A stretch of DNA of 23,321 nucleotides. It comes from Pseudobdellovibrionaceae bacterium (GTDB taxonomy: Bacteria; Bdellovibrionota; Bdellovibrionia; Bdellovibrionales; Bdellovibrionaceae). The translations under genes and the position numbers were made by a program. The DNA lies in assembly GCA_039810425.1 (NCBI GenBank), contig JBDHWW010000043.1:1-23321 (forward strand), given 5' to 3'. Every line of letters starts with the position of its first letter. Within the stretch, counting starts at the first letter, position 1. The notes under the pieces were generated by a model, which made no database searches, was not told where the DNA came from, and saw only the letters and a program-made list of their open reading frames with translations. Shown here piece by piece: positions 3,455-6,988 of the stretch.

Positions 3455-4402
3455 GTGATGAAGGGCCTTAAGATCTTTTCGGGAAACTCCCATCCCCAAC
3501 TAGCCAAGAGAGTGGCCGAAGCTGCAGGCGTTGAACTTGGATATTCCCAGGTCAGTGCGTTTGCCGACGGCGAAGTTCAAATCGAAATCCATGAAAGCGT
3601 CCGCGGCCAGAACGTGTTTATCGTTCAAAGCACCTGCCCGCCTGTAAACCAAAGCTATATGGAACTTTTTATCATGGTGGATGCGCTGAAACGGGCCTCT
3701 GCCGCACAGATCACGGCGGTGATCCCTTATTTCGGATACGCCCGCCAAGACCGCAAGGTGGCTCCCCGGGCTCCGATCTCCGCCAAATTGATGGCGGATT
3801 TGCTGACCACGGCCGGCGTCAACCGCGTGGTTTCCGTGGACCTCCATGCCACGCAGATTCAGGGCTTCTTTAACAGCCCCGTCGACCATCTCTTTGCCAT
3901 TCCGACTCTTGCCCGTGCTTGGCGTGAGCAGTTGGGGACCGGCTCCGAGTTTGTCGCGGTGAGTCCTGATGCTGGAGGGGTCGAAAGGGCCCGCGCCTTT
4001 GCAAAACGAATTGAAAGCTCTTTAGCCATTATCGATAAACGCCGTTCCGGTCCGAACGAGGCAAAAGCTTTGCACCTTATCGGGGACGTTTCGGGTAAAA
4101 CAGCCGTGATTATTGATGACATGATCGATACGGCTGGAACCCTTACACAAGGGGTTGACAGCCTTATTAAGAATGGGGCAAAACGTGTCTTCGCCGTTGC
4201 AACGCATCCGGTATTATCGGGACCAGCGATCGCCCGATTGAAAGAAAGCCCTATCGAAAAGGTTTGGGTGACAGACACGATTCCGCTGTCTGACGCCGCC
4301 AAAGCTTGTGGCAAGTTTGAAGTCGTCTCCGTAGCACCTTTGCTCGCGGAAGCCATCAAGCGTATCCACGGCAACGATTCGGTGAGTTCGCTGTTCGACT
4401 AG
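3455..4402 (+). CDS. prs: Ribose-phosphate pyrophosphokinase
   Basis: FADGE, ESVRG, PYFGYARQDRK, VSPDAGGVERAR and DDMIDTAGTL motifs. SD AGGAG at 3443-3447. Start is GTG 3455 or ATG 3458. Confidence 0.98.
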   Translation: MMKGLKIFSGNSHPQLAKRVAEAAGVELGYSQVSAFADGEVQIEIHESVRGQNVFIVQSTCPPVNQSYMELFIMVDALKRASAAQITAVIPYFGYARQDRKVAPRAPISAKLMADLLTTAGVNRVVSVDLHATQIQGFFNSPVDHLFAIPTLARAWREQLGTGSEFVAVSPDAGGVERARAFAKRIESSLAIIDKRRSGPNEAKALHLIGDVSGKTAVIIDDMIDTAGTLTQGVDSLIKNGAKRVFAVATHPVLSGPAIARLKESPIEKVWVTDTIPLSDAAKACGKFEVVSVAPLLAEAIKRIHGNDSVSSLFD

Positions 4403-4442
4403 GAACGCCCCGGGCGTTGCTGTCTTTGATTTAGTAACAAGT

Positions 4443-4468
4443 GACCAGTATCCAAACGGAGATGGGTC
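4443..4468 (+). promoter_or_regulatory. Candidate L25 autoregulatory leader hairpin (5S rRNA loop E mimic)
   Basis: GACC-AGUA-UCC-AAAC-GGA-GAUG-GGUC: two Watson-Crick helices flank a 4x4 AGUA/GAUG internal loop, 18 nt before the rplY start. Confidence 0.55.
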
Positions 4469-4486
4469 TAACAGAAGGAAGATGAA

Positions 4487-5164
4487 ATGAAACAAAGAAT
4501 TGAACTCACTATGGAAGCTCGCGAGACTGGTAAACACAATAGCCGCGCACTTCGTAATGCTGCTAAAGTTCCAGGCGTGATCTATGGCGCCGTTGAGAAC
4601 ACAAATGTGTTCGTCGATGTTCGTGATATTTTGAAGTACAACACACGCGCTTACGAAAATGCTCTTTTCAACATAAAAAGCTCTATCAACAAAGCAAATG
4701 GTAAAGTGGTTTTGATCAAGTCCGTTGACGTTCACCCACTCACTCGCCGTCCGGTCCACGTTGATTTTTTCGCTCTTGATATGACTAAAACGGTCCGCGT
4801 ACACGTTGAAGTTCGTCTTGAAGGTAAACCAATCGGTTTGTCTGAGGGCGGTTTGTTAAACGTTGTTCAACGTCAAGTTGAGATCGAATGTTTGCCAACC
4901 GATATCCCGGAATTCTTCACTGCAGACGTTTCTAACTTGGGCGTGGGCGATGCTCTTCACGTGTCTGACTTGAACGTAGGGAGTGTTAAAGTTATCTCCC
5001 GTCCAGAAGACACGATCGCGGTTGTTGCGGTTCAAGAAGAAGAAGTGGCGGCAACTCCAGCGGCGGCGACAGCAGCGGCTCCGGCAGCAGGTGCGGCGGC
5101 TCCAGCGGCAGCAGCCACTCCAGCAGCGGGCGCAGCAAAACCTGCAGCTCCAGCGAAAAAATAA
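4487..5164 (+). CDS. rplY: 50S ribosomal protein L25 / general stress protein Ctc (long form)
   Basis: R-LR-x3-VPGVIYG, HP-x5-HVDF and C-domain CLPTDIPE / GDALHVSDL motifs. Conserved prs-rplY-pth-ychF order. Confidence 0.97.
   Translation: MKQRIELTMEARETGKHNSRALRNAAKVPGVIYGAVENTNVFVDVRDILKYNTRAYENALFNIKSSINKANGKVVLIKSVDVHPLTRRPVHVDFFALDMTKTVRVHVEVRLEGKPIGLSEGGLLNVVQRQVEIECLPTDIPEFFTADVSNLGVGDALHVSDLNVGSVKVISRPEDTIAVVAVQEEEVAATPAAATAAAPAAGAAAPAAAATPAAGAAKPAAPAKK
5047..5160 (+). repeat. Low-complexity Ala/Pro-rich coding repeat (C-terminal tail of L25)
   Basis: Repeated GC(A/G/T) codons and CTCCAGCGGC-like units encode AATPAAATAAAPAAGAAAPAAAATPAAGAAKPAAPAKK. Confidence 0.8.
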
Positions 5165-5212: not shown

Positions 5213-5285
5213 GTTTGTGGCGTAGATAAGACTTTTGTAGAAGTAGTTGCTCGCTCGGACAAACCAGCTTTCGGAGACAATGCAT

Positions 5286-5849
5286 ATGTGGCTCATCGTC
5301 GGCCTTGGAAATCCTGGGAATCAATATGCCCTCACCCGGCATAATATCGGCTTTATGGGCGTGGATTATATGCTCAAAGGCTTGGGAAATCCCCCGCTGA
5401 AAAATCAATTCAAAGCCGAGATCTTTCAAACCAAAATCGGCGACCATCCAGTTATTTTTTGTAAACCTCAGACGTTTATGAATCTCTCGGGCGAATCGGT
5501 GCAGCCTCTGATGGGTTTTTATAAGATCGCCATGGATCACATCATCGTTATGCATGATGAAATTGATCAGCCGTTTGGACAAATGAAAATCCAGAAGAAC
5601 CGCGGGCACGGCGGGCATAACGGCATTAAAAGCATTTCCGGTTTATTGGGCTCCGCCGACTATATTCGCCTCCGTTTAGGCGTGGGGCGCCCCGAGAACC
5701 CTAATATCCCCGTGGCTGACTATGTATTGAATAAATTCACCCCAGACGAGTTCACGAAAATGCCGGATTTTCTCAATAAAGCGGGCGATGCGGTCGAAGG
5801 CATCCTCTATGACGGAATCCAAAAAGCTTCGACGAAGTTTAATTCTTAG
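5286..5849 (+). CDS. pth: Peptidyl-tRNA hydrolase
   Basis: LIVGLGNPG-x-Y-x-TRHNIGF, KPQTFMNLSG, HDEID, GGHNGIKS and RLRLGVGRP motifs. Start set at ATG 5286, 9 nt after GGAG at 5273-5276. Confidence 0.97.
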   Translation: MWLIVGLGNPGNQYALTRHNIGFMGVDYMLKGLGNPPLKNQFKAEIFQTKIGDHPVIFCKPQTFMNLSGESVQPLMGFYKIAMDHIIVMHDEIDQPFGQMKIQKNRGHGGHNGIKSISGLLGSADYIRLRLGVGRPENPNIPVADYVLNKFTPDEFTKMPDFLNKAGDAVEGILYDGIQKASTKFNS

Positions 5850-5887: not shown

Positions 5888-6988
5888 ATGGCACTTCAGG
5901 TCGGAATCGTAGGTCTACCAAACGTCGGTAAAAGTACTTTGTTTAACGCCCTCACATCGGCAAAAGCCGAGGCGGCGAACTACCCGTTCTGTACAATCGA
6001 TCCAAACGTGGGTGTTGTGACCGTCCCGGATTCTCGCATGGATAAAATCGTTGGCTTCGTAAAACCTCAAAGCATCGTTCCCACAACGATGGAGTTCGTC
6101 GACATCGCTGGTATCGTAAAAGGGGCCAGCCAAGGTGAAGGTCTCGGCAATCAGTTCTTGAGCCACATCCGTTCAACAGACGCGATCGTTCACGTGGTTC
6201 GTTGCTTCGACGATCCAAATATCATCCACGTATCTGGCAGCGTTGATCCAGTTCGCGACATGGAAATAATCAACACGGAATTGATGCTTGCTGATTTGGA
6301 CTCTGCTGAAAAGCGCGTAAAACGCGTTGAGAAAACTGCAAAGACCGGCACGGATAAGAAAATCAAAATGGAATATGAAGTGGCACGCAAAGTAGTTGAA
6401 GCCCTTGGTAAGGGATTGCCGGCGCGCTCGGTCGCTATTGATGATCAAGAAGCTCCTTTCTTGAAAGAGATGCATTTGCTCACGGCGAAGCCACAATTGT
6501 ATGCGATGAACGTGTCTGACACAGACTTCGCGGCTGGCGGCAATGATTGGACCCGCGCTGTGGAAAAACGCGCTGCTGAAGAAGGTAACACGACGATCTT
6601 GATCTGTTCAGCCATGGAAGCTGAGATTGCCCAGTTGCCAAAAGAAGAGCGCAAGGACTTCTTGGAGGCTCTCGGTGCTGAAGAGCCCGGCTTGAATCGC
6701 CTGATCCGCGAAGCTTATAAGTTGTTGGGCCTCCAGACCTACTTCACGGCGGGTGAAAAAGAAGTGCGCGCATGGACCATCCGCGCCGGCACGAAAGCTC
6801 CGCAAGCAGCCGGCGTGATTCACACGGACTTTGAACGTGGCTTCATCAAAGCTGAAACTTATCACTGTGAAGATCTCTTCACTTTGAAGAGCGAGCAAGC
6901 AGTGAAAGACGCCGGCAAGTACCGTGTCGAAGGTAAAGAGTACGTCGTTAAAGACGGCGACATCTTGTTTTTCAAATTCAACGTTTAG
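5888..6988 (+). CDS. ychF: Redox-regulated ribosome-binding ATPase YchF
   Basis: GIVGLPNVGKSTLFNALT, ANYPFCTIDPN, DIAG, GEGLGNQFL and a TGS domain (EVRAWTI, IHTDFERGFI). SD AAGGAG. Confidence 0.98.
   Translation: MALQVGIVGLPNVGKSTLFNALTSAKAEAANYPFCTIDPNVGVVTVPDSRMDKIVGFVKPQSIVPTTMEFVDIAGIVKGASQGEGLGNQFLSHIRSTDAIVHVVRCFDDPNIIHVSGSVDPVRDMEIINTELMLADLDSAEKRVKRVEKTAKTGTDKKIKMEYEVARKVVEALGKGLPARSVAIDDQEAPFLKEMHLLTAKPQLYAMNVSDTDFAAGGNDWTRAVEKRAAEEGNTTILICSAMEAEIAQLPKEERKDFLEALGAEEPGLNRLIREAYKLLGLQTYFTAGEKEVRAWTIRAGTKAPQAAGVIHTDFERGFIKAETYHCEDLFTLKSEQAVKDAGKYRVEGKEYVVKDGDILFFKFNV

Follow-up and report, generated by a model that had tools for sequence, protein, structure and literature searches.

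A conserved hairpin with letters of 5S ribosomal RNA loop E before rplY in Bdellovibrionaceae: a candidate translational operator for ribosomal protein L25

Does the long form of ribosomal protein L25 control its own synthesis, and if so, through what kind of RNA element? The question is raised by a short intergenic spacer on contig JBDHWW010000043.1 of a Pseudobdellovibrionaceae bacterium (GenBank assembly GCA_039810425.1), of which the 23,321 nucleotides (nt) analyzed, positions 1 to 23,321, are called the window here. The spacer between prs and rplY, the gene for L25, is 84 nt long (the prs stop codon TAG occupies 4400–4402 and the rplY start codon ATG begins at 4487), and it holds a 26-nt hairpin at 4443–4468, GACC-AGUA-UCC-AAAC-GGA-GAUG-GGUC, which is followed after 6 nt by the Shine-Dalgarno (SD) region and after 19 nt by the rplY start. 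The initial annotation of the window had read this hairpin as a mimic of loop E of 5S ribosomal RNA (rRNA), the site bound by L25, and the hairpin is indeed in the spacer letter for letter as given there. The element exists, it is strongly selected as an RNA hairpin, it is specific to rplY, and it copies letters of the L25 site. Because it spells half of L25's 5S site, it is probably that protein's own feedback switch, a translational operator that L25 would bind by way of a partial and topologically permuted mimicry of loop E. The rplY product (4487–5164, forward strand, as are all window features described below) is a long two-domain protein of the bL25/Ctc/TL5 type with an Ala/Pro-rich tail, recognized from the open reading frame list and from Pfam domains PF01386 and PF14693, the latter being the TL5 C-terminal domain that makes this L25 a long form; it would presumably be both the regulator and the target of the leader element.

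The outer stem of the hairpin is built from the arms GACC (4443–4446) and GGUC (4465–4468), which form four pairs, and the inner hairpin UCC-AAAC-GGA (4451–4460) has three. Between these stems AGUA (4447–4450), with the letters of 5S rRNA positions A101–A104, faces GAUG (4461–4464), with the letters of G72–G75, and this symmetric 4 × 4 internal loop is closed on both sides by Watson-Crick helices of 4 and 3 base pairs (bp), just as the initial annotation had stated. Two flanks that take part in no predicted pair adjoin the hairpin, UAACAAGU at 4435–4442 and UA at 4469–4470, and the SD region AAGGAAG, described earlier as lying within a few nt of the hairpin, is found at 4475–4481, 5 nt before the AUG. 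The minimum free energy fold of 4403–4500 contains the hairpin together with a smaller one at 4404–4418 and leaves the SD region open; a long-range pairing of 4424–4434 with 4484–4498 in the minimum free energy structure is neither conserved nor predicted by RNAalifold and was rejected.

The hairpin is conserved throughout the genus of the window's genome. (The genome itself is designated G000 and its genus g1; other G-numbers are genomes and L-numbers are loci.) The L25 gene was located in 40 of 41 related genomes, and the spacer is alignable only inside g1, where the alignment comprises eight sequences from seven genomes and one metagenome contig (L043). A blastn search with the spacer matched five of the six other g1 genomes; the sixth, G001, was missed and later recovered by a covariance model, R1, which finds one copy per genome in all seven g1 genomes, each time before rplY. 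In 40 other Bdellovibrionaceae genera R1 gave only one chance-level match and none near rplY; that match, in G112 (expectation value, E, 0.225), is regarded as due to chance. The 36-nt block 4435–4470, which consists of UAACAAGU, the hairpin and UA, is identical at 35–36 of 36 positions between G000 and each of G002, G003, G004 and G006, whereas four-fold degenerate sites of rplY are only 41–46% identical in the same comparisons, and the spacer on both sides of the block is variable in the genus. Judged by this comparison of sequences, the block is under strong selection.

The pattern of change inside the block is in keeping with a structured RNA. All 56 pair cells of the g1 alignment (seven pairs in eight sequences) are paired, and RNAalifold, unaided, returns the same hairpin. 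G001, the most divergent member of the genus, retains 29 of the 36 positions; four of its seven substitutions make up two compensatory pairs (outer stem, C-G to U-A; inner stem, U-A to C-G), and the other three fall in the four-letter terminal loop, which is variable across the genus (AAAC, AAAU or GUAU). Compensatory changes in two of seven pairs, both from G001, are reached by 13 of 500 shuffles. AGUA is invariant in all eight sequences, both flanks are identical in all eight, G001 included, and GGAAG of the SD region is kept in 8/8. The opposing strand of the loop is GAUG in seven sequences and AAUG in the eighth, G004. All the computational checks proposed with the original claim gave favorable results: the loop letters are kept in relatives, Rfam holds no such family (below), and the flanking stems show compensatory changes, these last being two pairs in a single divergent genome.

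The small GC hairpin AACGCC/GGCGTT at 4404–4418, which had been described as preceding the element, is present and is terminator-like with a poor U tract, but it is not part of the element because it lies inside an insertion of 31 nt (about 4392–4422) found only in G000; this insertion is lacking in G005 and L043, and contigs of the public sequencing runs X15 and X6 pass over it. The insertion provides a new stop codon for prs and is apparently bounded by a short GCTGT direct repeat, and the ancestral prs end (CTTTGATTTAG) is still legible after it. At the other end of the leader, an out-of-frame AUG-AAA-UGA mini-frame (4482–4490) overlaps the rplY start codon in G000, G005, L043 and G003 only.

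Conservation of this kind might also reflect a role of the block as DNA, either as a site bound by a dimeric transcription factor, an operator, or as part of an rplY promoter: the block contains an imperfect palindrome (GACCAGTATCC / GGAGATGGGTC) whose halves match at 8 of 11 positions, the changes in G001 are symmetric, as those of co-evolving half-sites could be, and the flanks are as conserved as the hairpin. Such a role is very improbable. A scan of 4100–4700 found no sigma-70-like promoter on either strand, the candidate −10 sequence TATCCA has become TACCCG in G001, and the loop words match loop E on the sense strand only; these three observations together weaken the DNA reading, and other genera keep the loop words but not the palindrome arms. 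In g1 genomes without the insertion the block begins directly after the prs stop codon, and there is therefore no room for a promoter in the spacer. A candidate promoter TTGATT-17-TATCCA was rejected, as it is not kept in G001, its TTGAT is made up of the prs Phe-Asp-stop codons in several genomes, and the scan gives no match to it. The upstream gene, prs (3455–4402; ribose-phosphate pyrophosphokinase, from the open reading frame list and Pfam PF13793, PF14572 and PF00156), may be transcribed together with rplY: a contig from an RNA library runs from the end of prs through the leader and ~100 nt into rplY, which fits co-transcription but is not proof of it. The sequencing-run data are contigs only, in small shares (0.06–0.33), and runs X1 and X2 have no cover over 4397–4577.

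How often should such a hairpin occur by chance? The exact descriptor (a stem of at least 3 bp, AGTA, a hairpin, GATG and a stem of at least 3 bp) has two matches in all on the two strands of the 3.54-Mb G000 genome, as against three to four in each of five shuffles, and one match somewhere in the genome is therefore expected by chance. At this genome-wide rate, the odds of a match in this particular 84-nt sense-strand leader are about 3–4 in 100,000. With a looser descriptor, AGTA-hairpin-RATG, five of 2855 putative gene-start regions of G000 match, and rplY is among the five.

The likeness of the loop to its presumed model was gauged against 5S rRNAs of relatives, since the 5S rRNA model RF00001 has no match in the 149-contig G000 assembly (nor in the window, nor even at E ≤ 10 around the leader); the same model does find the 5S genes of related genomes. 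Loop E of three other g1 members consists of the strands GAUGGUA and GAGAGUA, and the helix IV that they enclose has 8 bp and a GCAA loop; the RNA crystallized with E. coli L25 has these same strands (PDB 1DFU; PMC1920249 Table 1). Loop E comprises seven non-Watson-Crick pairs with their symmetry center at G75–A101, and an amino group of L25 lies near U80 of the 5S rRNA (PMC1976436). The leader holds the eight letters G72–G75 and A101–A104, that is, one submotif and the central pair; of the 14 letters of loop E it thus has 8, set opposite each other in the correct register. As in loop E, GAUG and AGUA stand opposed in a symmetric internal loop with Watson-Crick helices at both ends, and the letters that define the submotif, 5′-GUA and 5′-GA(U/G), which would give the pairs A.G, U.A and G.U(G), are present; unlike loop E, the leader is part of a messenger RNA (mRNA) and has the Watson-Crick stem GACC/GGUC on the other side of its loop, not a second submotif. 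The one loop variant seen in the leaders, AAUG in G004, is the same G-to-A change that is found in the 5S rRNA of G001. (Natural variants of loop E itself include the G001 strand AAUGGUA, with A at position 72, at L039, and GAUGAUA/GAAAGUA, with A at 76 and 100, in G024 at L122.)

The copy departs from 5S rRNA in the order of its strands. Loop E of 5S rRNA has GAUG on its 5′ side, with the second submotif interposed before the terminal hairpin, helix IV. The leader instead has AGUA on the 5′ side, and the A.G pair directly adjoins its terminal hairpin. Thus the earlier statement that the leader has the loop E submotif in the same register stands for the letters, which are also those of the g1 5S rRNAs, but not for the topology, which is permuted. 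The pair geometries and the pseudo-two-fold symmetry of loop E were reportedly worked out by Correll in 1997 and by Leontis and Westhof in 1998, and by that symmetry we take the leader loop to be equivalent to the second submotif beside helix IV, with G.U in place of G.G. It is this second-submotif side, together with helix IV, that L25 is said to contact in the structure attributed to Lu and Steitz in 2000.

Comparable elements were sought before rplY in other genera. In the family Bdellovibrionaceae L25 was located in 146 of 151 genomes, and the upstream 220 nt were taken for 79 of 122 further genomes; matches at contig ends were left out, as were most of the additional species in g3 and g10, the two large genera; with the earlier loci, the survey covers 104 regions from 37 genera. 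A first, strict descriptor, applied to 64 rplY leaders, missed G004 (with its AAUG), g9 and g40 (which have no outer stem) and the Gemmataceae locus L068 and was replaced; its background of 0.0055–0.0078 matches per 210 nt makes its two matches outside g1 not significant alone. The family descriptor that replaced it, AGTA-hairpin-RATG with a hairpin of at least 3 bp and a loop of at most 10 nt, within the last 100 nt before rplY, is matched in 25 of 104 regions (7/7 in g1, 10/10 in g9, 1/1 each in g19 and g40, 3/18 in g3 and an ambiguous 3/8 in g7), where 0.08 matches are expected at the whole-genome rate and about 0.15 at the rate of the 2854 other gene-start regions.

The stems around the AGUA-hairpin-RAUG core differ between genera, and so do the layouts. 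In g9 (L017, L146, L151, L153, L155, L156, L158 and L173–L175), g40 (L160) and g19 (L021) the layout is AGUA-YYY(Y)-loop-RGR(A)-GAUG, 2–6 nt before the AUG, and the SD itself forms the 3′ arm of the hairpin, for example AGUA-UCCU-CAAAGA-AGGA-GAUG-GGAU-AUG. The g19 representative, G024, carries little weight alone, because it is a single sequence whose 27-mer prefers another fold. A subgroup of g3 (three species and one metagenome contig: L187, L189, L206 and L044) has a symmetric arrangement 27–48 nt before rplY, RAUG-AGUA-[4-bp stem]-RAUG-AGUA, in which RAUGAGUA faces RAUGAGUA in an 8 × 8 loop and the 4-bp hairpin covaries (CGGC/GCCG, AGGC/GCCU, AGAC/GUCU). The native 5S strand order with a long hairpin, NAC-RAUGG-CCUC...GAGG-AAGUA-GUN-AGGAG, is found in 8 more of the 18 g3 genomes and, with certainty, in one of two g42 regions (L020, L186, L196, L199, L200, L203, L204, L205, L207 and L169 in the g3 subgroup and g42); its closing 3-bp helix, which lies directly against the SD, covaries (AAC/GUU, GAC/GUC, CAC/GUG). 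Pairs were also counted on a cross-genus alignment, A5, but as a pairing descriptor had selected its rows, the count is circular and was not used as evidence. Other conserved rplY leaders also occur in the family. Those of g10 (L009, L184, L185 and L191–L195), g12 (L008) and g51 (L149) share the word CUCUAUYGGACUAGARGGA, preceded by a variable GC hairpin and without loop E words, and those of g7 (L010, L129, L130, L133, L135, L140, L143 and L147) share AGUAAUAGGAAGUAGCC...GGAGGU(C/A)AUGGCCUAUG, with two AGUA words and the SD in the loop of a GCC/GGC hairpin.

These comparisons bear on whether the likeness to loop E matters at all. A real and selected hairpin could resemble loop E incidentally and serve as a protective 5′ stem-loop, as a processing signal that uncouples rplY from prs, or as a standby or enhancer site, with no feedback by L25. 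The closeness of the hairpin to the prs stop codon, which it follows directly where the insertion is missing, the lack of a promoter-like site in 4100–4700, and the RNA-library contig that bridges prs, leader and rplY would all suit such a role, as would the unremarkable folding energy of the leader (below) and the invariant, single-stranded, A-rich 5′ flank, which is of a kind fit for standby or for a site of ribosomal protein S1. A hairpin needed for stability does not, however, require an invariant 4 × 4 loop, and in this one the letters of the internal loop hold constant as the stems vary. The loop words are found at only 5 of 2855 gene starts, one of which is rplY, other genera have them ahead of rplY within different stems, and fuller copies of loop E stand before rplY in unrelated lineages. 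An incidental likeness is thus unlikely.

Two such lineages were found outside the family. In the lineage of G167 (the genome of L070) and its relatives, where the gene order is tRNA-Gln-rplY-pth (tRNA, transfer RNA), 11 of 28 usable rplY leaders contain C-AUGGUA-[5–7 bp helix]-GAGAGUA followed after 0–4 nt by AAGGAG. These near-complete copies of loop E and helix IV lie about 15–70 nt before rplY (L090–L096, L099, L102, L105 and L106), and their strands match those of the 5S rRNAs of the same lineage, GAUGGUA and GAGAGUA. The two loop words, not pairing, decided which rows entered the alignment, in which all six helix pairs have compensatory changes, with 98.4% of cells paired, a result reached by none of 500 shuffles; the leader has no match in Rfam. 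In a metagenome-assembled genome of a planctomycete of the Gemmataceae (L068:~1440–1480), GAGGGUA-GUGGGC-GUUC-GCCCAC-GAGAGUA, a near-full copy of loop E, lies 25 nt before the rplY AUG. The leaders of both lineages resemble that of g1 in standing before a long-form rplY, near or abutting the SD, with loop E words that flank a hairpin; they differ in that both strands are near-full and in native topology, where the g1 leader is a compact half-site of permuted topology. Beyond the loop words there is no sequence similarity between the g1 leader and those of other lineages, which points to independent origin or fast turnover.

Another rival concerns the ligand. The hairpin might be bound by another protein, one that recognizes modules like loop E or the sarcin-ricin loop, or it might bind L25 for another purpose, such as sequestering or chaperoning the protein or controlling the downstream genes pth (5247–5849) and ychF (5888–6988; both from the open reading frame list and Pfam). 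Modules of the AGUA/GA type are common building blocks of RNA, and pth and ychF do follow rplY on the same strand. The association is nevertheless with rplY across different neighborhoods, with prs upstream here and tRNA-Gln upstream in the G167 lineage, and in g9, g19, g40, the g3 subgroup of native topology (g3b) and the G167 lineage the motif is located at the ribosome-binding site of rplY or within it. These alternatives are accordingly quite improbable.

Control by L25 itself may work as follows. The RNA operator would be the hairpin 4443–4468, probably with its invariant flanks (4435–4470); the 5′ flank UAACAAGU may be an extension of the protein site. The 4 × 4 loop could stack as one loop E submotif plus the central G.A pair (sheared A.G, reverse-Hoogsteen U.A, G.U and A.G) beside a short helix, and L25 made in excess of free 5S rRNA would bind this mimic of a half-site. 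Bound so near the SD (6 nt) and the AUG (19 nt), the protein would then keep the 30S ribosomal subunit off the start site or trap it there, and L25 would in this way lower its own translation. We infer the non-canonical geometry of the loop, its binding by L25 and repression by competition from the features described above. In the sister layouts the SD is inside or adjoins the structure, and the same logic would be more direct there.

Several observations weigh against this model. Of the seven non-canonical pairs in loop E the hairpin reproduces only four, and in permuted topology, and the helix beside the A.G pair is 3 bp long with a tetraloop, as compared to 8 bp for helix IV. The invariance of the flank UAACAAGU is not accounted for by an operator of this design. 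In E. coli a strong SD abolished control, according to a 2024 review (PMC10931766), and the g1 SD is fairly strong. The folding energy of the whole leader is ordinary (z = −1.31; 18 of 200 shuffles are equally stable), so that energy alone is uninformative. The covariation within g1 comes from one genome and hence one lineage, and related sequences can beat shuffles without any structure. The family descriptor was widened after the data had been seen (RAUG, and no outer stem), the backgrounds having been measured with the same widened form, and the motif is absent from 31 of the 37 genera surveyed, including Bdellovibrio proper (g10, 0/8).

A translational operator for L25 remains the probable explanation of the g1 hairpin, and it invites a more tentative generalization, one that is plausible but for which we would not claim the better part of the likelihood: that in many phyla the long form of bL25 is under feedback control through leaders in which its 5S site has arisen anew, and that such leaders were rebuilt at least three times within Bdellovibrionaceae from one loop E submotif, as the permuted hairpin (sometimes with the SD inside), the symmetric double submotif and the native topology. 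If that were true, L25 would recognize a pseudo-symmetric half-site and its operators would turn over at the genus level, and a gap would be filled that is left by the E. coli operator, which is unlike loop E and confined to species with short L25. Feedback by L25 is known only for relatives of E. coli with the short protein, and their operator gives no clue to how L25 recognizes it. A compact leader with half of loop E would supply a minimal L25 binding site and the first regulator for the widespread two-domain L25/Ctc form, and the differing layouts among sister genera would exemplify the origin and remodeling of rRNA mimics. The leaders also give seeds for covariance models that can improve the annotation of rplY leaders. 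To our knowledge, L25 is the only 5S-binding protein with a transcription unit of its own.

How does the element compare with known systems? The initial annotation had known of an L25 leader in Gammaproteobacteria but of no compact loop E mimic in this lineage, and the literature search found no paper on a loop-E-like rplY leader. Rfam 15 has nothing like the element: no family matches in the window at gathering score, the only two hits in 4350–4540 at E ≤ 10 are at chance level (the presence of an enterobacterial rplY model in that release was not verified), and a scan of twelve related leaders gave nothing relevant. The closest functional parallel is in the enterobacteria. E. coli L25 represses translation of rplY through its leader, as stated in PMC4408793 and in section 3.8 of the review PMC10931766; its operator hairpin, HII, "does not resemble" loop E in the words of its authors (Aseev, Bylinkina and Boni 2015, PMC4408793), the features of that leader are confined, in the same section of the 2024 review, to species with a short one-domain bL25, and Eckert and Weinberg 2020 (PMC7247131) report only a re-finding of the enterobacterial rplY motif. 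The two leaders are alike in having a hairpin in the rplY 5′ leader just upstream of the ribosome-binding site, with L25 as ligand (proposed here) and competition with the 30S subunit as the proposed mechanism. No homology in sequence or structure is apparent between them, the enterobacterial leader combining the irregular HII and a weak GAGA SD with a short L25, whereas the leader described here combines loop E letters and an AAGGAAG SD with a two-domain L25 in a Bdellovibrionaceae host.

A broader parallel is with the ribosomal protein leaders that imitate rRNA, among them the L20 leader (RF00558) and the S15, S8/spc, L1 and L4 operators. In these, as proposed for g1, a primary or 5S-binding ribosomal protein that is in surplus over rRNA binds its own mRNA at an imitation of its rRNA site; in each case the regulator, its rRNA target and the fold are not those of g1, and none of these families matches the region. 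The g1 hairpin, which is in neither Rfam nor the papers searched, would add to this group, on the evidence of its sequence, a partial and permuted copy of an rRNA site.

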